Shown here: positions 1 to 37,523 of the stretch, piece after piece
Numbering within the stretch: the first letter of the stretch is position 1
How the letters are laid out: each line of letters starts with the position of its first letter
IMG/VR virus record: IMGVR_UViG_3300018080_000344
From: a virus
DNA length: 37,523 bases
Strand: one strand, 5' to 3'
Notes under the pieces: generated by a model
Told to the model about the DNA's origin: nothing
Database searches by the model: none
Seen by the model: the letters and a program-made list of their open reading frames with translations, nothing else
Program-made: the position numbers and the translations under genes

Positions 1-1342
1 CATCAAGACCACCTACTAAAGAAGTCATTGAAATAGCATTATCTGCAGCTTCTTCAGCAGTTACTACAACTCTACCTGCTGAGCTTGATAAAGTTAAATC
101 AATACCAGCTCCTGTTACTCCAACACTTGAAGCTGTATTTGAAGTAACTGCATAAGCTCCTCCGACTCCGTCGATAGTTAAACCACCGCTTCCATAATCA
201 ATATCAATACCACCAGCAACGTTAGAAGCGTGTAGATAAATTGAATCTGCAGCGGCTTCATCACCAACTATATTTACTGATCCGCCTGAAGAAGATAATG
301 TTAAATCTTCTGAAAGTCCTGTTACTGTAAAGTTAGAAGCTGTAGCACCATCAATAGAAATTCCCGCTCCTGTATCTATTGCAAAAGCTCCGCAAGCTGC
401 ATTACCAATTGTTAATGTATGTGCTGCTGCTGAATTCGCAATACCAATCGCTCTTGCTACTGTTCCTCCACCAATATTAATTGCATTAGCTGCATCATCC
501 TGACCAACATTGAATGTTCCACCTGTTTGAGCAAAATTTCCTGCAACTGTTAATGAACTAAATGTTAATCCACCATTTGAATCTACAGCAAATACTTCCA
601 AGTCAGCTGAATCTAAAAGACTTAATTTATTCAAGCCTGCTGCATCACCAACCTTCAATATTATATCTTGTCCTAATGGAGCTGTAATAGCTACATCAGA
701 TGCTGCAGTATATAAAGGAGAAGTTACAGACGTATTAGCTGTAGCAGTTGTAAAAGTAGCAGCTGCTGGCGTTGTAGCACCAATAATGCCATCCATATTT
801 GCTACTGTAAGAGTTCCAAGCGAATTTAGACTAGCTACAGATACACTTGATGCATTTTCAAAATCAATAACATTTGCCCCTAAATCGTCTCCCATTTGAA
901 TTGTAACATCAGCACCTGCTGCTGCATTAATATCTAAACCTGCAGCTGCTGTAATTATAGGTGTAGTTAAAGACGTAGCTAATGTAACTGCTGCATCTAA
1001 ATTTACAGTTACAACTGCTCCAACTGCAGCTGTAGTGATATTTGTACCACCAGCTATTTGTATACTTCCTCCAACAGGAGTAGCTGTTCCACCATCTCCA
1101 GTTAACTGATCTACGTCTGAAGCTCCAGGACCATTTAAAATCCAAATTGCTCCACCAGATGAATTGACTCCACCGAATTGATATGAAGTAGCTGTATCGA
1201 CTGTAGGTTTGTAAATCCAAGTATCTCCTATTGCGAAATCAGTATCGCTAGTTGTAGGAGCTCTGGAAGCTTTTTTTGCTATGTGAGGAACATCTATAAA
1301 AGGTAGTTCCTTACAATAGGCTTTATAAATTTTTTTTACCAT
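1..1342 (-). CDS. Tail-fibre-like beta-helix repeat protein, 5' part. The ATG is at 1342 and the ORF leaves the left edge, continuing in frame at 37467..36914. Together this is one 631-aa ORF across the circular junction.
   Basis: Hand translation of the minus strand from ATG 1342 (MVKKIYKAYCKELPFIDVPHIAKKASRAPTTSDTDFAIGDTW...) stays open to position 1. It ends ...AEEAADNAISMTSLVGGLD, which is the N-terminus of track ORF 36914..37495. A GAGGA SD lies upstream. The ORF track omits it because there is no stop before the window edge. Confidence 0.8.
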   Translation of the reverse strand, partial: MVKKIYKAYCKELPFIDVPHIAKKASRAPTTSDTDFAIGDTWIYKPTVDTATSYQFGGVNSSGGAIWILNGPGASDVDQLTGDGGTATPVGGSIQIAGGTNITTAAVGAVVTVNLDAAVTLATSLTTPIITAAAGLDINAAAGADVTIQMGDDLGANVIDFENASSVSVASLNSLGTLTVANMDGIIGATTPAAATFTTATANTSVTSPLYTAASDVAITAPLGQDIILKVGDAAGLNKLSLLDSADLEVFAVDSNGGLTFSSLTVAGNFAQTGGTFNVGQDDAANAINIGGGTVARAIGIANSAAAHTLTIGNAACGAFAIDTGAGISIDGATASNFTVTGLSEDLTLSSSGGSVNIVGDEAAADSIYLHASNVAGGIDIDYGSGGLTIDGVGGAYAVTSNTASSVGVTGAGIDLTLSSSAGRVVVTAEEAADNAISMTSLVGGLD

Positions 1343-1394
1343 TGTATCCTCACGTGTTAGAAATGCCCCTATTTATGTGGTTCTGGGCTTTAAA
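1343..1394 (-). promoter_or_regulatory. Leader element, copy F: CAGAACCAC stem-loop plus CTAACACGTGAGGA box directly 5' of the fibre ATG
   Basis: Minus sense reads TTTAAAGCCCAGAACCACATAAATAGGGGCATTTCTAACACGTGAGGATACAATG. It is near-colinear with the portal leader at 19817..19872. Confidence 0.5.
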
Positions 1395-4792: not shown

Positions 4793-5212
4793 ATGAAAAA
4801 ATATGTAGATGTAAAAGATATTGTTAATAATGAAAAATATCCATTTAGTTTAGGACAAATAAGATCTCTTTTAACTAAAAGAAGAAAAAATGGCCTTTAT
4901 AAATGCGTTAGAAAAATTGGAAAAAAAATTTATATTAGAGAAGATTTGTTTGATGAATGGATTGAGTCACATACTGAATTAGAAGATCATAAACATGAAC
5001 CTAAAAATATAGAAGATTGTACAATTTCCATTGATGAGCTAAATCTTTCTTCAAGAACTACTAATTGTTTAAAAGCGTTTGGTATTAAATATCTTAAAAG
5101 TCTAACAGAAACAACTGAAAATGAACTTAGATCTATTAAAAATATGGGAATCAGATCAATAAATGAAATAAAAGATAAATTAGCATCACTTGGTTTTTTG
5201 CTAAAAGAATAG
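4793..5212 (+). CDS. Fusion of an excisionase/MerR-type HTH with an RNA polymerase alpha-subunit C-terminal-domain-like domain
   Basis: The N-terminus ...KCVRKIGKKIYIREDLFDEWI resembles HTH_17. The C-terminus IDELNLSSRTTNCLKAFGIKYLKSLTETTENELRSIKNMGIRSINEIKDKLASLGF aligns by eye to E. coli alpha CTD [56 protein letters not shown]. Confidence 0.75.
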   Translation: MKKYVDVKDIVNNEKYPFSLGQIRSLLTKRRKNGLYKCVRKIGKKIYIREDLFDEWIESHTELEDHKHEPKNIEDCTISIDELNLSSRTTNCLKAFGIKYLKSLTETTENELRSIKNMGIRSINEIKDKLASLGFLLKE

Positions 5213-13846: not shown

Positions 13847-14206
13847 TTATCCTCCGTATACCTGTCTCATCTGAAATCTAGGATTATTTCCTATTAATTT
13901 TTTCTCTAGTCCACCCTGTCCATTAGGACGCCAATCCCAAATTGGAGTAGTTCTTGACTCAATCCACTGAGCTATAAACCTTGGTAGTTTATATTTACCT
14001 CCATGGAAAAGAGTAAAATTATGGTTTTTCTTTGCATTTCCATAAGGGAAACGGTGGGAAAGACCAGGTTCTTCTATGTTCATAAACTCAAATTCACAGA
14101 TTTCGCGAAGGAATTTTTCTTCCTTTTCATTCACAGGCTGCTTACCTATAATAGGCAGCTTTTGAAGCTCATCTAGTTTTACTTTTTGATGTTTTTCTTG
14201 ACTCAT
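13847..14206 (-). CDS. Hypothetical virion-module protein
   Basis: ORF with a GAGGA SD. Confidence 0.5.
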   Translation of the reverse strand: MSQEKHQKVKLDELQKLPIIGKQPVNEKEEKFLREICEFEFMNIEEPGLSHRFPYGNAKKNHNFTLFHGGKYKLPRFIAQWIESRTTPIWDWRPNGQGGLEKKLIGNNPRFQMRQVYGG

Positions 14207-14223
14207 ATTTTTCCTCGTTATTT

Positions 14224-14258
14224 AAAAGGGAGAGAGAAACTAAGTCTCTCAACCCTTT
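14224..14258 (-). terminator. Strong hairpin (attenuator or terminator) after the capsid and decoration genes
   Basis: Minus sense reads AAAGGG-UU-GAGAGA-CUUAGUU-UCUCUC-U-CCCUUUU. That gives 6+6 bp with a small internal loop and only a short U run. Confidence 0.45.
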
Positions 14259-14282
14259 ATATTTCTATTTAATAGTATTAGA

Positions 14283-14876
14283 TTATACTACTACATTTTC
14301 TCCATGTACTACAGCAACCATTACAGCATTGTTTCCACCAACAACACCTGTGCCTAAAGTAATACCTTGGATAGCTTGGTTTTCTACTGGTATAGCTTTA
14401 CCGTCTGTATCAGATACTCTTGATACTTTACCACCAGATACATAAACGCTATATAAGCTTGTATCTTCAACTAAAGTAATAGTAGTAGCAGTTACAGAAG
14501 CAACAGTAAATGTGCCATTAAGGCTTGTTGCTGTATCATCATCTGCAAGTTCTGATACTTTAATAGTATCGCCAGCTGCAAAACCAAATGTAGCTGTATC
14601 ATTTACAGTAATTACCCCAGGAGCAGCATTAGTAAAGCCACTGATTGTAGCTGCTACTGCTGTTGATTGAGATAATGGTGTAAATCCGTTAGATGTAGTA
14701 ACAGCACCTGTTGATACTAGTACATAATAGGCATCAGCCATTGATGAATTCCAATACCATTGATTACCGTTTGTTACATCTGTTACTGTTATTTCACCTA
14801 CTGTGAAACCGATAGACTCATTTCTAGCAACTGCTGCTGCTGGATTGGTCCATCCAAATACTTTCATCTGAGCCAT
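14283..14876 (-). CDS. Putative capsid decoration or head-fibre protein with one ANPGVVT-type module
   Basis: Strong SD (AGGAGG). It follows the capsid gene and is followed by the hairpin. The module is ISGFTNAAPGVITVND...GDTIKVSEL.... Confidence 0.4.
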   Translation of the reverse strand: MAQMKVFGWTNPAAAVARNESIGFTVGEITVTDVTNGNQWYWNSSMADAYYVLVSTGAVTTSNGFTPLSQSTAVAATISGFTNAAPGVITVNDTATFGFAAGDTIKVSELADDDTATSLNGTFTVASVTATTITLVEDTSLYSVYVSGGKVSRVSDTDGKAIPVENQAIQGITLGTGVVGGNNAVMVAVVHGENVVV

Positions 14877-14892
14877 AATTTTAACCTCCTAT

Positions 14893-15375
14893 TTATGTTA
14901 ACTTTGAATGGCAAATTTTGCAGACCCAAATAACAGAAGTTCTTTGTTCTCTTCCATATCTTGCATGATGAGCTTCTGTATTCCCCTCTTCGCCACAAAT
15001 TTGACAATGAGAAGGTTTAAAAAGTTCACCTTTTTTAACAGCGCGATATATGGCATCATGAGCTTTCTTTTTTTCTGGAAATTTTTCTTTATATTTTTTA
15101 TTAGATTTTCTATGGCTTTCTTTCCCTTTCTCGGAAGCTAACCATCTCTTTTTCCGTTCTGCAATTTTTTCCTTATTTTCCTCATGAAATTTTTTATTCT
15201 GTTCTTTACGTCTTTTAACCCAATCAGGATCAGTTTTACGACGTTTTCTATCCATCTCAAGACGACAAAGTTTGCAAATACTGTTGTATCCATCTTTTGC
15301 TGTCTTGTCTTTATAGAATTCATCATAACTTCTTCCTTTTTTGCATTTTGAACATCTTTTCATATAGTACCTCAT
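14893..15375 (-). CDS. HNH endonuclease (zinc-ribbon N-terminus, K/R-rich linker)
   Basis: CQICGEEGNTEAHHARY...VCKICHSKL. An alternative start at ATG 15363 has a better SD (GAGGT). Confidence 0.75.
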   Translation of the reverse strand: MRYYMKRCSKCKKGRSYDEFYKDKTAKDGYNSICKLCRLEMDRKRRKTDPDWVKRRKEQNKKFHEENKEKIAERKKRWLASEKGKESHRKSNKKYKEKFPEKKKAHDAIYRAVKKGELFKPSHCQICGEEGNTEAHHARYGREQRTSVIWVCKICHSKLT

Positions 15376-16386: not shown

Positions 16387-17070
16387 TTATCCAAGGTTTT
16401 TTCTTACTTCCTGCATAAAGTCAGCATCAGACATATCCTTATATCGTTTAGCTTGTGAAATAGGAGAAGTTGAGCCCATACTCGATAAGCTTCCTGCCTT
16501 ATTGGCATTCTCAACTATGCGTTGTGCATCAGCGGACTTCTTAATTCTCTTATTTGCTCCTCTATATTCGTCAGAATTTTTAGCCAAATAATAAGCAAGT
16601 TCATAATCCTGTGTTTTTTGCAGTGTGTTTTGTAACCCTGGGTTTTTTTTCAATACATCGGGTAAATATTTTGTGATGACATCTTGATAATCTGGATGCT
16701 TCTGAGCCATTTTAAGTTCTTCAATCGTCATTTGGAATTTGTTAGCCATTCCTGAAGAAAGCTTTTTAAACTCTCCTACTGTCATGACATCTCCATCTTC
16801 TAACCCCTCAAATTCATCTTTTTGTTTTTGAATGGTCTGCGATTGTTTTACTTGAGAAAGGGCTAAGTGGTCCTTTATCATTTTGAGTTCATCTTCCATC
16901 TGCTGTCTTTTCGCTCTTTCAGATTGCAATGCTGTAAGTGGAACATTTTGCTCTTCTGATGTAGCTTGTGTTTCTTGCAGCTGCTCTTCTTGAGCTTGAT
17001 TAGTTTCATTAGATGGTGGAACGGCGGCTTCCAAATTTTGATCGCCCGAAACGGTATTTTCTTCTATCAT
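16387..17070 (-). CDS. Scaffolding protein
   Basis: Acidic, Q/E-rich helical protein lying between portal and capsid. Confidence 0.6.
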   Translation of the reverse strand: MIEENTVSGDQNLEAAVPPSNETNQAQEEQLQETQATSEEQNVPLTALQSERAKRQQMEDELKMIKDHLALSQVKQSQTIQKQKDEFEGLEDGDVMTVGEFKKLSSGMANKFQMTIEELKMAQKHPDYQDVITKYLPDVLKKNPGLQNTLQKTQDYELAYYLAKNSDEYRGANKRIKKSADAQRIVENANKAGSLSSMGSTSPISQAKRYKDMSDADFMQEVRKNLG

Positions 17071-17135
17071 TATGTAGCTCCTTTTTCGCCCTATCTGACC
17101 CTAGTGGTTTAGTTTTTGTGTCAGAGTCGGCGGCA

Positions 17136-17743: not shown

Positions 17744-19816
17744 TTACTGTTGGAATCCACTGGGTGCAGCTGCTGGCACCTGAGTAGTTTGATTTTGAGG
17801 AAAAGCCGAGTTCATTTGTTCTGATGAAGCTGTTATAGCTATATCTTCTGCTTTATTCTCTTCCTCTTTAACTTTATTAATTGAGTCCATCATTTGAACT
17901 ATTTGCATATATTTCATTAATCTATCATCATTCATTGACTCTAGTTCTTTCATTGTTTTAGCTCTGTCCAATGATGCCTGAGCGCGGTTTTGTATAGCTT
18001 CTGAGTTTCTTTCTTCTTGAAGGCCCATATTAGCTACAGATCTAGTGAAATCTTCTTTAGCGCTTGCAATATTTTTGATTGAGTTTGATTTATTTAGTTC
18101 AAGCTGTGAATTTAATACTTCTTGTTCTACTTGCTGTTGCTTTTGCATTATTTGCGATTGTTGCTGTTCCATTTGAGCAATTTGTTGATTAAACTCTGTT
18201 TTTCCTTGGAGTGGAGCTGCATCTGCAAGCATCTCTCCTGTTACTGGAACGCCAAGTTGTTTCAAATCAACTAGCTGTCTAAAATATATTTGACGTTGAG
18301 TATCTGTTAATACACCTTCTTGAACTGTAATATCATATTTGATGAAGTCCTGGTCATAAAACTGCTGAGTCGGCTTTTGATTAATAATTCTCTCTATTTT
18401 TTCTGGCTTCCATGTTTGTATTAACTTTAATGCTTTTTTAGATATTAATTTTTGCGAAAAGCGGAGGTTATCAAAAATATCCTGTAGATTAACTATAGAT
18501 GCTCCTTGTCTAAGCATCATCATAATACCAGATTCTTGAGCATTTTCTGTCATTCCAAAAGCTGCATCATTAACACCTGTAATTGTCATTATATCTTGAT
18601 CAAATTGTTTTTGAAGCTCGAACATTCCTTGTGGTATTTGAGATGGTTGAATTTTTTCTATATCACCTGGTTGTGTATCTTCTTCTTTCCAAATAACTTT
18701 TCCTTGTGAAGACTGAAACAAAGAACGTGGATTAACAACGGAAGATTTTTTAGCAATCCATCCAGAATTAATACTAGAATCTAAGATATCTATCATCTGA
18801 GAGCGCCTTCTATTAGCCTCTCTTTGAGGATCTATTTGACACCTTACAAGAGACTGCATTTTAAGTTCCCAATGCTCAGATTCAGGCTCAAAAAGACCAA
18901 CTAAGGGAACAAATGGATACTCATTTAGACCATATTGATTCTTTTCAGTTCTCATTAAGTGATCATTTAGAATAATATTACATTCAACAAATTTCTTAGG
19001 GCGCTTTACAACTTCTAATTGAGGATAATTTTGTAAAAAGAATCTTAACCCTTCTTTATCTCCCTTCCATTCCGTATATTCACCAGTTTCTTGGTCTACT
19101 ATTACATCGACATTCTCCCATCCCTGTTTATAATATTCATTATAAGCGATGAAATCTTGTCCGTTTGGTTGAGTTTGGTAAGGAAGCCATGTAAATTTAT
19201 CGTCTCTAGACCATCCTTGCTTTGCTAGCATATATACGTCTTTTTCTTGGCCTGGCAATAAGGAAGCAGCTTGTGCTGGAGAAAGGTACTTACGTTTAAT
19301 TACATATGAACAATCTGAGAAATCTAGCTGGGTGAAATAAGGATCGACGATAAAGCCATTGTATGGCTCCCTACCAAATTTAATATCTCCATTTATTGGA
19401 TCATCTCTATAATCCATCCAAATGTCTAATAAATTAAAACCTGTTTTTAAAGCACCACCAAAAGCTTCAGATATGAATTTATATCCTTCGCCATAATTAA
19501 GTGCATAAAGTAATAATTGTGATAATTGATCAGCGGACGCTTGATCAGATGTTTCTTGAGGAACCACAACAGAGCTAAGCCTGTGTTTTCTTTGATATCC
19601 TGTAAGTAAATTAATGTTTCTTCTGATTAGGTTAAATGAATAAGCGTTTCTTCCCTCTTCATATAACTTTTGTTTCTCTTGGTTATCCCATTGATCGCCT
19701 AAAAAGAATCTCAAATCCCTATTAGCCATAGGATAATATGGATTCCATGCTAAATATGCAGATTCGTAATTATCATTATATTCACGAACAATAGCATTAT
19801 CTGTACTCTTTGTCAT
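17744..19816 (-). CDS. Portal protein
   Basis: 690 aa, positioned downstream of terminase and upstream of scaffold and capsid. It has a Q-rich helical C-terminus. Confidence 0.8.
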   Translation of the reverse strand: MTKSTDNAIVREYNDNYESAYLAWNPYYPMANRDLRFFLGDQWDNQEKQKLYEEGRNAYSFNLIRRNINLLTGYQRKHRLSSVVVPQETSDQASADQLSQLLLYALNYGEGYKFISEAFGGALKTGFNLLDIWMDYRDDPINGDIKFGREPYNGFIVDPYFTQLDFSDCSYVIKRKYLSPAQAASLLPGQEKDVYMLAKQGWSRDDKFTWLPYQTQPNGQDFIAYNEYYKQGWENVDVIVDQETGEYTEWKGDKEGLRFFLQNYPQLEVVKRPKKFVECNIILNDHLMRTEKNQYGLNEYPFVPLVGLFEPESEHWELKMQSLVRCQIDPQREANRRRSQMIDILDSSINSGWIAKKSSVVNPRSLFQSSQGKVIWKEEDTQPGDIEKIQPSQIPQGMFELQKQFDQDIMTITGVNDAAFGMTENAQESGIMMMLRQGASIVNLQDIFDNLRFSQKLISKKALKLIQTWKPEKIERIINQKPTQQFYDQDFIKYDITVQEGVLTDTQRQIYFRQLVDLKQLGVPVTGEMLADAAPLQGKTEFNQQIAQMEQQQSQIMQKQQQVEQEVLNSQLELNKSNSIKNIASAKEDFTRSVANMGLQEERNSEAIQNRAQASLDRAKTMKELESMNDDRLMKYMQIVQMMDSINKVKEEENKAEDIAITASSEQMNSAFPQNQTTQVPAAAPSGFQQ

Positions 19817-19872
19817 GTATTCCTCACGTGTAGATGACTCAACTCTTTCGAGTGTGGTTCTGAGTCTTTCAA
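19817..19872 (-). promoter_or_regulatory. Leader element, copy P
   Basis: Minus sense reads TTGAAAGACTCAGAACCACACTCGAAAGAGTTGAGTCATCTACACGTGAGGAATACATG. The stem is GACUCA/UGAGUC, with an inner ACUC-GAAA-GAGU hairpin. Confidence 0.5.
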
Positions 19873-19941
19873 GTAGAAAGTATTAGAGATCTATAAATCT
19901 CCGTAATGGCAACTATAGATTCACTTTAGTTTTTTATAAGA

Positions 19942-20188: not shown

Positions 20189-21448
20189 TCAATAAATATT
20201 TTTAGAATATAAACGTTCTAGTTTTTCTGCATCATCTGCTGTAAATTCTGGTCTTAGATTTTTATTAAAGAAGCAAGTTACTAAGGCATAACGAATTGAG
20301 TCGAGGCAATGGTCGAATTTCTTAAGCGGCTTGTCAAACCCCTTTTCAGACGCCTTAGAATCCCAAAGATAATTACTAAATTCTTTTATTGTTTCATTAC
20401 AATTAGAACATATCTTCAATGTTCCGTTAGTAAGTAATTGACTAACAAATCTTATACCAGGAACAACGTCATTAACAGCATCGACAACATTATAAATGCT
20501 ATTTCTACGTAGTTCTTGTTTAAATGAAGCAGCAGATGGATCAATATAGATTTTCTTTACATTATAACCCTTAATAAATTCAATCATATCAAGTGCATAA
20601 TCATAATCAGATTTTTGTCTTAATTCCTTTTTAGAATCAAAATAATATTCTTTTTCTAACCACATATTTGGATATACACCAGGATTATAGCCAATAAGCG
20701 TAAAAACACATGGATTAGTAGTGCCGTAATCAACACCAACGATATAATAATTAGCGGGGGCAGGAGGCATTTGAATAGTATGAATGTCTTCGTCGAAAAA
20801 GTCATAAACAGCTCCATCTGCTTGTACCCATTTACCTTCGATATATCTCTTATACCAAAGTCCTTGATATTCTGCAGATAAGTCTGATATATATTTATCT
20901 GTTAAAGTAGGATTATCGTGTATACTATAAGAAAACACCTTCAGGTCTAATTCATTTCTTCGATCCATAAAATCAGTTTTTAGCCAATGATAGGGAGAAT
21001 CGGGGTTAGTAGAACAAAATAACTTTGATTCTGGTATAGAAAGTCTTGATAAAAGCATTTTAAAAAAATTCTCAGGAATAAGAGTAGCTTCATCGATTAA
21101 AGCACCAGCGAATTCAGACCCCCTGATTTTAGCTTCAGCACGGTCGTCGTTAGCTCCTACTACATACATAGTTCTATTATAAAGGTTTACTTCTCCCTTC
21201 CCAATTGAATACTGAACGGCGCTACCAACTAAATCTTGAAGAGGAGAAATAATGTTTCTTTTAATTGTCTTGTCTGTTCTTCCACATATGATTAACGGAC
21301 CCTTTGGGCCAGTTCTACAAAAATCTAACCATCTCAAGAGAGCTATAAAAGATTTACCAGCCCTTACAGGCCCTTCAAATATGTTGATACGAGAGTCAGA
21401 CCTTTGATAAGAGGCAAGTTGTTTATCGCTTAAGCTCGTTAATTCCAT
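20189..21448 (-). CDS. terL: Terminase large subunit
   Basis: Walker A motif GPVRAGKS, a later nuclease-type acidic region, 419 aa. Confidence 0.9.
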   Translation of the reverse strand: MELTSLSDKQLASYQRSDSRINIFEGPVRAGKSFIALLRWLDFCRTGPKGPLIICGRTDKTIKRNIISPLQDLVGSAVQYSIGKGEVNLYNRTMYVVGANDDRAEAKIRGSEFAGALIDEATLIPENFFKMLLSRLSIPESKLFCSTNPDSPYHWLKTDFMDRRNELDLKVFSYSIHDNPTLTDKYISDLSAEYQGLWYKRYIEGKWVQADGAVYDFFDEDIHTIQMPPAPANYYIVGVDYGTTNPCVFTLIGYNPGVYPNMWLEKEYYFDSKKELRQKSDYDYALDMIEFIKGYNVKKIYIDPSAASFKQELRRNSIYNVVDAVNDVVPGIRFVSQLLTNGTLKICSNCNETIKEFSNYLWDSKASEKGFDKPLKKFDHCLDSIRYALVTCFFNKNLRPEFTADDAEKLERLYSKNIY

Positions 21449-23081: not shown

Positions 23082-23605
23082 TAACTACACCTCACTTTCA
23101 TAGTAGCCGCTGGGAAAAGGTCTATCACAGGTTGAAGATTTTTTTCGACATGACGCAAATCATCCTCATTGTCAAACTTTATATTGATAGAAAATATCTT
23201 TGGTTTTTCTTTTGGTATGATCTCTGTGTGAAGCTCTTCTTCTGTGAAACCTGAACTCATTAGAACGTCAGGTTCCCAACGGTTAGCGAGCATATCAAAA
23301 TCGAACTCCCCGCTAACCTTATTAAGAGTAATTGTTAACTCTCTGAACTCTCTTTCTGAAAGAGTTCTGGAAGGTATCGCGACAAAAACTTGATCATAAC
23401 CGAGAGATCTGAGCGTCTTGAGACGTTGATGTCCTCCGATGACACTGCCATCTGGCTGGATAACGACTGGTTGACATAAACCGAACTTTCCAAGCGAGTT
23501 TTTAAGCTCTTCCCCTCTTTTCTTAGAGAGCCTACGCGGGTTGTCTTTGTTTTCAATGAGCTCATCAATATTCCTCTTTGAATATTTCCATGAAATTTCT
23601 TTCAT
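23081..23605 (-). CDS. ParB N-terminal-domain (sulfiredoxin-like) nuclease-like protein
   Basis: ...NPRRLSKKRGEELKNSLGKFGLCQPVVIQPDGSVIGGHQR.... Confidence 0.8.
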   Translation of the reverse strand: MKEISWKYSKRNIDELIENKDNPRRLSKKRGEELKNSLGKFGLCQPVVIQPDGSVIGGHQRLKTLRSLGYDQVFVAIPSRTLSEREFRELTITLNKVSGEFDFDMLANRWEPDVLMSSGFTEEELHTEIIPKEKPKIFSINIKFDNEDDLRHVEKNLQPVIDLFPAATMKVRCS

Positions 23606-23640
23606 ATAAAACCTGTGGTTCTGAGAGGTTTTCCTCTAGG
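23606..23640 (-). promoter_or_regulatory. Leader element, copy PB (stem-loop only)
   Basis: Minus sense reads CCTAGAGGAAAACCTCTCAGAACCACAGGTTTTATATG. The stem is AAAACCU/AGGUUUU and the loop is CUCAGAACCAC. Confidence 0.4.
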
Positions 23641-25712: not shown

Positions 25713-26304
25713 GGCAATTCTCCTTAAGTCCTTGTACGCTAAAATACAGATGTGTACCATCTGAGTCTTTTTCTTGGTAAACTCTAACTAACTGTCGGTT
25801 TCTTAATCCCAGGCGATTTGCTTTTTTTATTATGTAATCTAAATCTTCGATATCTAGAGATTGCTTATACGTAACAGCATGTTCATTAATCATATCATTC
25901 GCCTCTATTTGGAATAGATTGATTTCTATTCCTGGATTATTAGAATATCTTTTTTGGGATGATAGCTTTGCTATTTGAGAATCATCGTGATAAGCAATTC
26001 CATTTAAAACATCGAGAACAAATTTTTCATAATTATCAAGGTCTGGTCTAGCAACAACGAACTCATTTTTTATTAAACACGATTCTTTACGCTTTTTAGA
26101 CCATGATTTTGGAATCTGGACCCTTATGTCTAAAGCAGCCTCAATAGGCCCTTCTAGCGTGTTTAAATAGCCTTGTTGTCGAAATTGGTTAGCAAACTCA
26201 AACTTCATTCCACGCTTCTCATTAGACTGTGGGTCGTAGGCTATACCGTTTGCCATTCTATGTCTTTGCTTAGCAATTGGTTTTCCTTGGTGATAAAATC
26301 TCAT
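25699..26304 (-). CDS. rusA: RusA-family Holliday-junction resolvase with a C-terminal extension of about 65 aa
   Basis: ...ARPDLDNYEKFVLDVLNGIAYHDDSQI... matches the RusA D-x-D-N...K...D...DD signature. Confidence 0.75.
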   Translation of the reverse strand: MRFYHQGKPIAKQRHRMANGIAYDPQSNEKRGMKFEFANQFRQQGYLNTLEGPIEAALDIRVQIPKSWSKKRKESCLIKNEFVVARPDLDNYEKFVLDVLNGIAYHDDSQIAKLSSQKRYSNNPGIEINLFQIEANDMINEHAVTYKQSLDIEDLDYIIKKANRLGLRNRQLVRVYQEKDSDGTHLYFSVQGLKENCRGDQ

Positions 26305-26379
26305 CTATCTTGTTCCTTCATAGCTACTTTCAGTAATACTGTATGTTAAAAATTATTTCAACCATTTTTAAATTATTTT

Positions 26380-26657: not shown

Positions 26658-27617
26658 TTATATTAATTTATATTTTCTCATTAAACTATTTACTTGTTCT
26701 CTAAAGCCGTTTTCTTTAAACAGGACTGACTGTGATTCCATGGCTGATTGAGTGAAGATAAATAGCATTGCTGTTGACGTAACATCTATTCTAATTCCTT
26801 TTTCTTTGGCTATCTTTGGGTTAAATTCTTTAGCTATCTTGAGAGCCAATTCTTTGTTGGTCTCTCCTCCAACATAGTTCTTTCTTTTTTCTAGTCGCTG
26901 CTTTTTTTGATAATACCGATCAATTCCCCAGCTTTGAATTCTCTTATAATCACTTCCCTTTCGTTCTTTTGGGGTTTTAAATTCTTTCCAATCGCTTAAC
27001 TCAAGATAACTGCCTAGGGTTGCTTCCTCCCCGAAGTCTGCTAATAGTTTTTCATGTTGTTTCTCTGTTGTGCTTACAAAAGGAGCTCTTTCTATTAATT
27101 TATCTTTTGAAATTGAAATGGGAGTAGATGCGATAGCATCTTGTTTTACATTATCTTTAGATAATGTTTTTTTAGTATTAGTATTAGTATTAGGTATAGC
27201 TGCCCCGATTTCGGGATTTCCATTTCCCGATTTCGGGATATGCATTTCCTTTTCATAATTGACTGTATACCAGCCAGTTCTATCCATCGGGGTTTTGTTG
27301 AAATTACCTTTAAGGATTAATTTTAGATCAAACATTTTTTTAAGAATTCGCTCTACTTGTTTCGCAGACCAATAAGGAAAATGAGCAGCTATTTCATCTA
27401 TAGTATTATAAAACCAATATCGCCCTTCATTAAAATTTGTCTTACGAGCTTTATTATAATTGACCCAATGAGTCACGTGCTTATACATTAAAGCTACGTC
27501 TATTCCGTAATCTTTAGCTATATCTGTATCAAAAGAGTGAGTGTCTGCTCTTAAAGATATCTTTTTTTCAGCTTTTTCTTGATTTAATGCTGGCGCATCA
27601 TTATTATTGGAATCCAT
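26658..27617 (-). CDS. Replication initiator / replisome-organizer-like protein
   Basis: Winged-helix-like N-terminal half (...YNTIDEIAAHFPYWSAKQVERILKKMFDLKLI...), a low-complexity linker (PNTNTNTKK), and a basic C-terminal half. A repeat cluster lies inside the linker coding region. Confidence 0.55.
   Translation of the reverse strand: MDSNNNDAPALNQEKAEKKISLRADTHSFDTDIAKDYGIDVALMYKHVTHWVNYNKARKTNFNEGRYWFYNTIDEIAAHFPYWSAKQVERILKKMFDLKLILKGNFNKTPMDRTGWYTVNYEKEMHIPKSGNGNPEIGAAIPNTNTNTKKTLSKDNVKQDAIASTPISISKDKLIERAPFVSTTEKQHEKLLADFGEEATLGSYLELSDWKEFKTPKERKGSDYKRIQSWGIDRYYQKKQRLEKRKNYVGGETNKELALKIAKEFNPKIAKEKGIRIDVTSTAMLFIFTQSAMESQSVLFKENGFREQVNSLMRKYKLI
27175..27239. repeat. Ori-like cluster: (GTATTA)x3 plus two 14-bp dyad-containing direct repeats CCCGATTTCGGGAT spaced 22 bp apart
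   Basis: GTATTA occurs at 27175, 27181 and 27187. CCCGATTTCGGGAT occurs at 27204..27217 and 27226..27239. Confidence 0.45.
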
Positions 27618-27692
27618 GATATAATCTCCTTTGGATTGGTGGGGTTATTTTCATGATATAATCTCCTTTGATTTAGTGGGGGGTATTGTTTT
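27615..27692. repeat. Tandem duplication (about 37-41 bp units) of the initiator's translation-initiation region
   Basis: Unit 1 is CATGATATAATCTCCTTTGGATTGGTGGGGTTATTTT. Unit 2 is CATGATATAATCTCCTTTGATTTAGTGGGGGGTATTGTTTT. The first 19 nt are identical. Confidence 0.6.
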
Positions 27693-27923
27693 GGATTTCC
27701 TTAGTAGCTTTTTGAAGTCCATGTTTGTAAGCAAGTTTTTAGATTCATAGTCTATAAGATTTACTCGGTCGTGTATGCGGCCAGTATCTACACTCACGTG
27801 TAGCTCGTTTGGGGGAAATGGGTGGTTCTGTTTCTCCCTATTTTTTTCCATAAATTCTTTATATTTAATAAAACCACCAGTTAAGTCGCCATCTCTTCTT
27901 TTTATAAAAACAATTCCAACCAT
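27651..27923 (-). CDS. Hypothetical protein (coding status uncertain)
   Basis: 90-aa ORF with no clear SD. It contains leader-element copy 4. Confidence 0.35.
   Translation of the reverse strand: MVGIVFIKRRDGDLTGGFIKYKEFMEKNREKQNHPFPPNELHVSVDTGRIHDRVNLIDYESKNLLTNMDFKKLLRKSKTIPPTKSKEIIS
27791..27840 (-). promoter_or_regulatory. Leader element, copy 4, inside ORF 27651..27923
   Basis: Minus sense reads TAGGGAGAAACAGAACCACCCATTTCCCCCAAACGAGCTACACGTGAGTG. Confidence 0.4.
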
Positions 27924-36913: not shown

Positions 36914-37523
36914 TTAATTTTGTCTTACAATGAAATAAACAAAACTAGATTGATCTCCAGTTTCATCAGCTGCTGGTGAAGTTGGATCCTTAGATTCAAC
37001 TACAAAATTTACTCCAGCTGTAATTGTATAGATAATATGTCCTAATGCAGTTGAAGCATTAACAGCAGATCTTTGAATAAAAATTCTATCATTTACTGCT
37101 ATATTTGTGTTTGCAATAGTAACTTGACCATTAACTAATGTTGCTGTTCCTATGAAATCTGTTGCAGCACCCCCGTTCATTTCAAATTGTGTTGCTACTG
37201 AACCTAATACAAAATTAGTATTACAAGATACTTTTCCTGTTCCAGCTTCTAGATCAACACCACCTGCTGCATTAGTAGCTTTAATTACTACTGCATCACC
37301 TGCAGCTTCAGCACCTTCAATATTTACTGATCCAGCTGATGAAACAATATCAATATCATTTGCTAGACCTGCGGCTGATATATCAATGCCACCCGCTGAA
37401 GCATTTATTACAACAGCGTCTGCTGCTACTTCAGATGAAGTTAAATTTAATTGTAAAGCTACATCAACATCAAGACCACCTACTAAAGAAGTCATTGAAA
37501 TAGCATTATCTGCAGCTTCTTCA
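36914..37523 (-). CDS. 3' part of the junction-spanning 631-aa fibre ORF (stop at 36914)
   Basis: The frame stays open upstream of the track's Met at 37495 to the window end. It is in phase with the ORF leaving position 1. Confidence 0.8.
   Translation of the reverse strand, partial: EEAADNAISMTSLVGGLDVDVALQLNLTSSEVAADAVVINASAGGIDISAAGLANDIDIVSSAGSVNIEGAEAAGDAVVIKATNAAGGVDLEAGTGKVSCNTNFVLGSVATQFEMNGGAATDFIGTATLVNGQVTIANTNIAVNDRIFIQRSAVNASTALGHIIYTITAGVNFVVESKDPTSPAADETGDQSSFVYFIVRQN
37468..37523. repeat. 56-bp terminal overlap identical to 1..56 (circular closure)
   Basis: Direct comparison of the two window ends. Confidence 0.9.

Follow-up and report, generated by a model that had tools for sequence, protein, structure and literature searches.

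Small RNAs encoded by phages are few, and most of them act on one overlapping gene or on host genes. Antisense control through two contacts is represented by OxyS-fhlA, RNA I/RNA II of pAD1 par, and CopA-CopT, in which one contact joins two loops and another masks the ribosome-binding site; in pAD1 par, the loop-loop contact involves the terminator loop. The c4 RNA of phages P1 and P7 uses two separate complementary segments. It is a small phage RNA that blocks translation of the icd-ant mRNA (immI) around the ribosome-binding site, and co-variation of RNA and target between related phages leads to heteroimmunity (PMC12197685). Lambda OOP, P22 sar, and lambda aQ are short terminator-ended RNAs that are encoded close to the lysis-lysogeny switch and are antisense to early or regulatory transcripts (PMC12197685). 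The noncoding RNA STnc6030 of the Salmonella prophage BTP1 is directed against the mRNA of phage structural genes and has been proposed to give superinfection exclusion (PMC7067206), and VpdS of the vibriophage VP882, like other Hfq-type small RNAs, is a stand-alone RNA with an intrinsic terminator that reaches several mRNAs by short pairing (PMC12197685). Here, we describe a repeated stem-loop element in the virus genome of IMG/VR record IMGVR_UViG_3300018080_000344 (37,523 nucleotides [nt]; this whole stretch is called the window herein). Comparison with related genomes makes it likely that one of the four copies of the element, copy 4, is the gene of a trans-acting antisense small RNA (sRNA) and that the other copies are its docking sites.

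None of the systems that we compared joins a short terminator-ended trans-acting RNA, a multigene late regulon, and co-varying hairpins that present the target sequence. Like c4, the predicted sRNA has two complementary segments, which here face box 1 and box 2 with the Shine-Dalgarno (SD) sequence, and specificity classes differ between relatives. Unlike c4, which is cut out of the transcript that also carries its only target operon (that of the antirepressor), it is a convergent, terminator-ended gene of the early region for which neither a shared transcript nor an antirepressor target is found, and its targets are several scattered late structural and packaging genes, each with a co-varying presentation hairpin. 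As in the two-site kissing controls, the target sequence is shown in a hairpin loop; those controls have one target each, whereas here the same two boxes precede three to six genes, and their YUNR U-turn motif is not evident in the loops. OOP, sar, and aQ act only on the gene that they overlap, whereas the RNA described here would act on targets in trans through partial complementarity of 9 to 14 nt. STnc6030 differs in being a 786-nt, fully complementary cis-antisense RNA within the late operon, with no structured docking sites, and VpdS acts on host and phage mRNAs via Hfq, whereas the targets recognized here are the phage's own late genes only. The nut sites of lambda and the put sites of HK022 also combine an RNA hairpin with a linear conserved box that is repeated in the phage genome; their boxA/boxB consensus, promoter-proximal location, and partner protein are not found here, where the elements instead overlap ribosome-binding sites and match an antisense RNA.

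Copy 4 coincides with a predicted small RNA gene

The sequence CAGAACCAC (box 1) occurs exactly four times in the window, each time on the minus strand (1377-1385, 19854-19862, 23615-23623, and 27822-27830), whereas shuffled sequences gave an expectation of 0.11 and none of 100 shuffles attained four. A second sequence, CACGTGAG, occurs three times (1349-1356, 19823-19830, and 27793-27800) against 0.21 expected. The original prediction, made from the letters of the window, had described four copies of the first sequence on one strand, three of them followed by the second, and both statements are borne out by these counts, as is its remark that three of the four CACGTG sites of the window lie inside the element; the sequences that it quoted for the copies and their distances to ATGs were also correct. 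It had further placed all four copies at the heads of gene modules and treated them as equivalent. The placement holds for the portal, fibre, and ParB sites. Copy 4, in contrast, is not at the head of any gene and mirrors what appears to be a terminator-ended sRNA gene on the other strand (Table 1), so that the equivalence did not survive.

TABLE 1 Coordinates of the predicted sRNA gene and of its predicted and candidate target sites in the window
Feature	Position	Strand	Basis or remark
Predicted sRNA gene core (copy 4, other strand)	27788..27848	+	Terminator scan, covariance model, 13 genomes
sRNA hairpin 1, CUACAC-UCAC-GUGUAG	27788-27803	+	
sRNA linker, CUCGUUU	27804-27810	+	
sRNA terminator hairpin, GGGGGAAAUGG-GUGGUUCUG-UUUCUCCC	27811-27838	+	Followed by a U-run to ~27848
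Possible 5' part of the sRNA	27684..27787	+	Includes a -10-like TATTGT (27684-27689)
Conserved UUCCUUAGUAGC	27697-27708	+	Complementary to the ribosome-binding region of the RusA-like gene
Portal target site	19814..19872	-	Motif, covariation in 27 distinct sequences, complementarity to the predicted sRNA
Portal outer stem	19866-19861 / 19841-19836	-	
Portal box 1, CAGAACCAC	19862-19854	-	
Portal inner hairpin, ACUC-GAAA-GAGU	19853-19842	-	
Portal box 2, CUACACGUGAG	19833-19823	-	
Portal SD GAGGA; ATG	19825-19821; 19816-19814	-	
Fibre target site	1340..1394	-	Motif, relatives, complementarity to the predicted sRNA
Fibre stem, GCCC / GGGC	1388-1385 / 1368-1365	-	
Fibre box 1; box 2, ACACGUGAG; ATG	1385-1377; 1357-1349; 1342-1340	-	
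ParB-N-domain gene target site	23603..23640	-	Motif, conserved hairpin, match to the cognate sRNA
ParB-site hairpin, AGAGG-AAAA-CCUCU	23637-23624	-	Conserved
ParB-site single-stranded box 1; SD AGG; ATG	23623-23615; 23614-23612; 23605-23603	-	
Weaker candidate target before the scaffold-like gene (16387-17070)	17068..17123	-	
Ribosome-binding region of the RusA-like gene	26302..26324	-	Possible third-seed target

Copy 4 has no adjoining start codon and lies in a stretch of ~350 nt between a cro-like gene and a replication gene. In the direction of the late genes, an A-run precedes it, and the hairpin CUACAC-GUGA-GUGUAG takes in its box 2. A terminator scan returned the plus-strand hairpin at 27811-27838, which has 12 pairs and is GC rich, followed by the T-run UAUUUUUUU. 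The stem that had been proposed for copy 4 (GGGaGAAA/UUUCcCCC) carries an A.C mismatch when read with the late genes; on the plus strand, a G.U pair takes the place of this mismatch, and a T-run comes after the stem.

Relatives were gathered by scanning viral and metagenome contigs with the motif pattern and with the portal protein, which yielded ~30 related contigs with portals 62 to 88% identical. A pattern search, a covariance model (R1), and inspection located the copy 4 locus in 13 genomes (in some relatives, e.g., L056, L095, and L109, the RNA region fell outside the retrieved stretch); R1 matches the window at 27781-27850 with 78.6 bits. In all 13 genomes, the hairpin-linker-terminator layout converges on the cro-like gene from the strand opposite to that of the late genes, and a T-run of five to nine T's follows the terminator stem. 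The terminator hairpin is steadier in the plus-strand sense in 12 of the 13, with a mean folding energy of -14.8 kcal/mol in the RNA sense and -9.6 kcal/mol in the late-gene sense (Wilcoxon P = 5 × 10^-4), because G.U pairs in the RNA sense are A.C mismatches in the late-gene sense.

The open reading frame (ORF) that covers this locus (orf90; 27651-27923, 90 codons) was rejected as a real gene, its similarity to relatives being confined to the RNA element, and there is no plus-strand gene for ~22 kb upstream of copy 4. Since this ORF is not conserved and no plus-strand gene precedes it, a plus-strand transcript that ends here would be a small noncoding RNA.

The sRNA may extend further upstream. 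In 11 of the 13 genomes, TTGGRTTYCCTTAGTAGCAT is kept at the nucleotide level 10 to 70 nt upstream of hairpin 1; in the RNA sense, the conserved motif reads UUGGRUUYCCUUAGUAGCAU and is preceded by -10-like hexamers, and the weak -10-like hexamers of the window sit upstream of the conserved GGATTTCCTTAGTAGC motif. The RNA may therefore begin at ~27695 and bear a third seed (UUCCUUAGUAGC), which we regard as a lead only. Nearby, a 19-bp direct repeat, CATGATATAATCTCCTTTG, was observed at 27615-27633 and 27653-27671. On the minus strand it represents a duplicated SD and ATG before the replication gene, and on the plus strand it represents two extended -10-like sequences (TGATATAAT); analogous tandem repeats are present in relatives.

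The other copies are structured leaders of late genes

The portal copy folds as a two-tier hairpin, and this layout is found upstream of the portal gene in nearly all relatives: an outer 6-bp stem (GACUCU/AGAGUC) leads into a 7-nt single-stranded box 1 (consensus nAACCAC) and an inner stem of 3 to 4 bp capped by a tetraloop, after which box 2 (ACACGYGAG) merges into the SD sequence GAGGA, with the ATG 5 to 7 nt further on. A covariance model of the portal site returned 38 instances, of which 27 are distinct. In the alignment of these 27 sequences, which was fitted to the model's own structure so that pair counts lean towards that structure, 95.6% of the cells were paired (80.2% in shuffles), and changes on both sides (compensatory) occurred at 9 of the 10 pairs; none of 500 shuffles reached the observed values, and slid controls gave 31 to 47%. 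The inner loop is GNRA in 20 of 23. These patterns indicate that the portal target hairpin is a real RNA structure and that the target sequence is shown in a structurally conserved loop. The portal stem of the original prediction (GACUCA/UGAGUC) is supported by this covariation and also encloses the inner ACUC-GAAA-GAGU hairpin. Its broader expectation, a co-varying RNA hairpin that shows a fixed loop sequence, is likewise supported by covariance models and a search of related contigs, of the kind that it had suggested: loop conservation and stem covariation are both seen in the relatives.

Upstream of the portal hairpin, several relatives (L044, L046, L052, L057, and others) carry TACATTGTAGGnAG ... 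(T)TGCTAGCAC-TTCCGCCCCTCT-TATTTA at a distance of ~20 to 60 nt. From this promoter-like TTGCTA-16-TATTTA arrangement, a transcript would begin at the base of the portal hairpin. The window has a different sequence at 19873-19940, in which the arrangement is absent.

At the fibre gene, box 1 lies in a plain loop closed by GCCC/GGGC. This stem had been part of the pairing first proposed (AAA-GCCC/GGGC-a-UUU); it recurs as GCCC/GGGC in three close relatives and as GGCCC/GGGC in two more, and no compensatory change was seen among the five sequences. A sigma-70-like promoter (TTGAAA-17-TATTAT, 1426-1398) would begin a transcript at the base of the fibre hairpin. In the related genome G6, box 1 of the fibre site reads GAGCCAU, as does that of its own sRNA.

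The ParB site has no box 2 in the window. Its layout is a 4- to 5-bp hairpin capped by GNRA or ANAA, a single-stranded box 1, AGG(A), and ATG. The kept hairpin is AGAGG-AAAA-CCUCU, directly 5' of the single-stranded box, and not the AAAACCU/AGGUUUU stem originally proposed, which is not conserved; among 13 relatives, it has seven different stem sequences, all of them paired. Box 1 of the site matches the cognate sRNA.

Complementarity to the predicted sRNA follows the cognate genome

Box 1 of the portal, fibre, and ParB sites is perfectly complementary to the terminator loop of the predicted sRNA, GUGGUUCUG. Likewise, CUCACGUGUAG, which comprises the loop and the 3' arm of hairpin 1, is perfectly complementary to box 2 over 11 nt at the portal and 9 nt at the fibre gene. 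Matches in the window thus amount to 9 plus 11 nt (portal), 9 plus 9 nt (fibre), and 9 nt (ParB). After subtraction of the unfolding costs, the predicted net energies are -3.4 and -8.7 kcal/mol for the two contacts at the portal (total, ~-12), -2.6 and -5.5 kcal/mol at the fibre gene (total, ~-8), and -6.5 kcal/mol at ParB. In relatives, complementarity of 7 to 14 nt covers the SD or the AUG. Targets were scored by seed matching, opening energies, and a permutation test in place of a whole-RNA duplexfold scan of the genome, which was dominated by A/U and G runs. A pseudoknot between the boxes (AACCAC with GYGAGG) was also considered and dropped; by eye, it had 3 bp only and no co-variation.

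Box 1 changes together in the RNA locus and its targets. It is GAACCAC in the window and G2, AAACCAC in L042 (RNA, portal, and ParB), UACCAC in L058 (RNA, portal, and ParB), GAGCCAU in L062 and L064 (RNA, fibre, and ParB, up to 9 nt), and AGAACCA in L071. In L116, a complete replacement, CAGCGAU, is found in the RNA terminator loop and at the portal, ParB, and TerL sites, and the same CAGCGAU occurs at the g13847-type site of the related contig L098. The corresponding terminator loops are GUGGUUCUG for the window type and UAUCGCUG for the L116 type.

The second contact also follows the cognate RNA, in differing registers: it spans 11 nt in the window, 12 nt in L058 (ACUACACACGAG), 13 nt in L054 (GACUACACGCGAG), and 14 nt in L116 (AUUAUUCAACGAGG, shown in the RNA hairpin loop). 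In L062 it is the SD itself (UCCUCGCG against CGCGAGGA), in L042 the start codon (15/16 nt), and at the scaffold-gene sites of relatives the spacer between SD and AUG (GGAG-CUACACGCG-AUG). The distance from box 1 to box 2 varies from 11 to 37 nt, and box 2 overlaps the SD or the start codon in a register that differs among genes and genomes.

For 11 genomes and 23 homology-defined targets, the assignments of RNA to genome were shuffled 20,000 times. The cognate score for box 1 was 180.5, compared with 157.2 ± 6.1 in the permutations (P = 2 × 10^-4), and that for the SD/start side was 199, compared with 165.9 ± 7.8 (P < 5 × 10^-5). Box-1 cores are found 48 times on the late-gene strand and 15 times on the other; for 38 of these 48, the ATG of an ORF of 60 or more amino acids follows within 75 nt downstream.

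Several points weigh against the view that copy 4 encodes an antisense sRNA. Many relatives share GAACCAC, so that the independent co-variation events number about five or six. Identity of the late-strand boxes with copy 4 is formally the same as complementarity to a plus-strand RNA and gives the same co-variation signal, and co-variation alone is also compatible with a co-evolving protein that binds all copies. A directional test of G.U pairs versus A.C mismatches on the flanks met unrelated sequence, 152 of the 210 differences being transversions, and internal G.U cases, inspected by eye, numbered four only, three of which were allowed and one not. A promoter scan performed no better than on shuffles, and no convincing -35/-10 pair turned up for the sRNA, weak -10-like hexamers being the only candidates. 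The minimum-free-energy fold of the RNA ties up part of GUGGUUCUG in weak G.U pairs, which would cost 6.6 kcal/mol to open. Finally, repression rather than activation is read from the overlap with SD and AUG alone.

Further candidate targets and differences in the regulon

The leader of the scaffold-like gene is probably also among the predicted targets. AACCAC (17109-17104) lies there in the loop of a CUGAC/GUCAG hairpin, and GAGCUACA (17080-17073) lies between SD and ATG. The homologous gene of relatives has CCUGA-GAACCAC-CAGG followed by GGAG-CUACACGCG-AUG, which matches their own sRNA.

If the sRNA reaches 27697, the RusA-like gene is a possible target of the third seed. Its ribosome-binding region contains GCUAUGAAGGAA (26324-26313), with the ATG at 26304 following 8 nt later, and, counted by hand, 12 of 13 positions would pair with the possible 5' extension of the sRNA. 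Four related genomes have a second late-sense CTACTARGGAA 6 to 9 nt before the RusA ATG; the window's copy has two mismatches. More generally, (G)CTACTAAGGAA is kept at the nucleotide level twice per genome in the early-left sense. In the window, these copies lie at 27697-27708 (-), near the sRNA gene, and at 26313-26324 (-), in the RusA-like ribosome-binding region; in relatives, they are at 1905/3397 (L058), 318/1517 (L064), 2712/3813 (L071), and 4950/3631 (L076).

The regulon appears to vary among close relatives. Before the gene at 13847-14206, a terminator-like hairpin (14207-14290, minus strand) is flanked in relatives by box 1, which reads AGAACCAC or, in L098, CAGCGAUA, and by AACGYGAGG; in the window, box 1 is lost (AAAUAGAAAUAUAAAGGG) and AACGAGG alone is left. 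Full sites with box 1 and box 2 are found before TerL in L018/L028, L110, L116, and L102 and not in the window. At the TerL start of the window (21427-21448, minus strand), codons 3 to 5 (AACGAGCU) match the sRNA linker (AGCUCGUU) over 8 nt, which may be chance.

Genome context

The window is a complete circular genome of ~37.5 kb and ~33% GC, because its ends overlap by 56 bp: the first 56 bp (1-56) recur at 37468-37523, so that the closed circle measures ~37,467 bp. The fibre gene beginning at 1342 (-) runs on across the circle junction. With terminase, portal, capsid, and fibres, the virus looks like a podovirus; other predicted genes include cro-like, RusA, and recombinase genes (one serine and one tyrosine-recombinase-like) and a gene fusing a helix-turn-helix (HTH) domain to the C-terminal domain (CTD) of the RNA polymerase alpha subunit. 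A blastn comparison with cultured phages returned no nucleotide match to the window, and in the same attempt to find a host the best portal relatives were ~22% identical. Rfam 15 cmscan of the whole window at an E value of ≤1 gave no match to known cis-RNA families, including HK022 put, and a search for tRNA and tmRNA genes in the window found none.

The sole genome hit that bore on the host was a 10-kb contig of the phage group (L094; CAYONI010000015.1), which is binned in a metagenome-assembled genome labeled "uncultured Methanosarcinales archaeon." Since SD sequences of the bacterial type and intrinsic terminators occur in the phage, this placement is probably a binning artifact and uninformative on the host.

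Two further genes of the window deserve mention. The gene at 4793-5212 (+) encodes a 139-amino-acid protein with an excisionase/HTH_17-like DNA-binding N terminus and an RNA polymerase alpha CTD (Pfam RNA_pol_A_CTD, E = 2.6 × 10^-20); this HTH-alpha-CTD protein is an unusual candidate transcription factor, and no link between it and the stem-loop element was made. Between the capsid gene and the gene at 14283-14876, the gene at 14893-15375 (-) encodes a 160-amino-acid Cys-rich, HNH-like protein. It is present in only some relatives, as judged by the differing upstream context of the g14283 homologues, and looks like a mobile insertion.

Alternative explanations

The strongest competitor is a phage or host RNA-binding protein that binds all four late-sense copies as a translational repressor or activator or as a processing factor, comparable to T4 RegA or a coat-protein operator; copy 4 would then give the early transcript a site for autoregulation or a decoy. 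Two conserved single-stranded boxes, structurally shown next to the SD, would suit such a protein, the identity of copy 4 with the other copies fits a common binder equally well, and the genome encodes uncharacterized small basic or zinc-finger proteins in addition to the HTH-alpha-CTD fusion. We nevertheless consider this explanation unlikely. It leaves unexplained why the opposite strand bears a terminator in all 13 genomes and why folding is better in that sense, and it sits poorly with a box spacing of 11 to 37 nt and a box 2 whose register relative to SD or AUG shifts between genes and genomes. Targets extend their match into the different flanks of copy 4, from 8 to 14 nt, which is typical of base pairing, and the complete swap of box 1 to CAGCGAU would need a simultaneous change in the specificity of the protein. 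That the registers vary, that matches extend into different flanks of the RNA depending on the target, and that a terminator lies on the opposite strand all lead us to favor RNA-RNA pairing over a common protein operator. The shared translational operator, one of the options of the original prediction, comes nearest to this view as far as the late-gene sites are concerned; copy 4 would be the regulator and not a fourth site.

Far less probable is a feature that acts at the DNA level, i.e., promoters for a phage transcription factor such as the HTH-alpha-CTD protein or boundaries of module exchange or site-specific recombination. The position at module heads, the sigma-70-like promoter just upstream of the fibre copy, and the presence of genes for a serine recombinase, a tyrosine-recombinase-like protein, and the alpha-CTD fusion would be in keeping with it, but compensatory changes and GNRA loops point to selection on a folded single strand, all copies have a single orientation tied to start codons, and the stems differ between copies within one genome, so that they are not half-sites for a dimeric protein. 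An extracytoplasmic function (ECF)-like or other -35/-10 promoter is excluded by the 11- to 37-nt spacing of the boxes, which is incompatible with -35/-10 geometry. Crossover sites of the Hin/Gin type and attC-like sites, considered in view of the recombinase genes, were also rejected (stems differ, one orientation, tied to SD/ATG).

We give the least credit, and very little of it, to nut/put-type processive antitermination, which the original prediction had put forward and in which a nascent transcript carrying the hairpin and linear box would alter RNA polymerase so that terminators are read through: the pairing of a hairpin with a conserved linear box is superficially like boxB plus boxA, copy 4 lies downstream of the cro-like gene as nutR does, and box 1 and box 2 of relatives flank a terminator-like hairpin before the g13847 homologue, but a boxA-like sequence and an Rfam match are both lacking, the conserved loop is 7 to 9 nt (AACCAC), the box spacing varies as described above, most sites lie within ~60 nt upstream of late-gene ATGs and overlap SD or AUG rather than being promoter proximal, each genome has four to seven sites instead of a single one for every operon, the boxes change in step with a terminator-ended locus on the antisense strand, and ten proteins scanned gave no N- or Q-like Pfam match in a search that was not exhaustive. 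That the original prediction had seen no N- or Q-like gene is explained if, as is most likely from the comparisons above, the trans-acting factor is an RNA and not an N- or Q-like protein.

Proposed mechanism and significance

If copy 4 encodes an antisense sRNA, a plus-strand RNA, antisense to the early-leftward leader, would end at the intrinsic terminator near 27848 and would act in trans by binding late mRNAs at their 5' leaders, i.e., the mRNAs of the ParB-like/packaging, portal, fibre, and, probably, scaffold genes. The first contact would be of the kissing type, between the terminator loop GUGGUUCUG and box 1 (CAGAACCAC), which the targets would keep single stranded, either in a hairpin loop or beside a small GNRA hairpin. 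In the second contact, the loop and 3' arm of hairpin 1 (CUCACGUGUAG), together with the linker, would pair with box 2, which abuts or overlaps the SD or start codon. The ribosome-binding site would thereby be masked and the 30S subunit blocked, so that translation is repressed at the gene that opens each late module, to which mRNA decay is perhaps added. Early-leftward transcription through the sRNA gene would yield a perfectly complementary transcript that could titrate the sRNA at lytic onset.

We hold the direction of regulation and the biological role with less confidence than the sRNA itself. As to that role, the sRNA may keep the late genes locked during lysogeny or early infection, or it may confer an RNA-based immunity; the natural spread of box sequences is reminiscent of the heteroimmunity of P1 and P7 through c4 (PMC12197685). 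A full version of this role, which we offer tentatively and with some doubt, would have one sRNA beside the cro-like gene mask the ribosome-binding sites of packaging, portal, scaffold, and fibre genes (and, in relatives, of TerL and g13847-type genes), diversify in sequence into immunity or incompatibility classes, and be released by the early-leftward sponge on induction.

If true, this would be a compact posttranscriptional master switch for virion production, found by comparative genomics alone in a podovirus lineage that is uncultivated and comes from environmental metagenomes. The variants in specificity that occur naturally would represent ready-made orthogonal RNA-target pairs that permit clean swap experiments, and an RNA-based heteroimmunity that is aimed at late genes, and not at an antirepressor, would become directly testable. 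The locus also suggests that what looks like a repeated cis-element can conceal its own trans-acting regulator among its copies.

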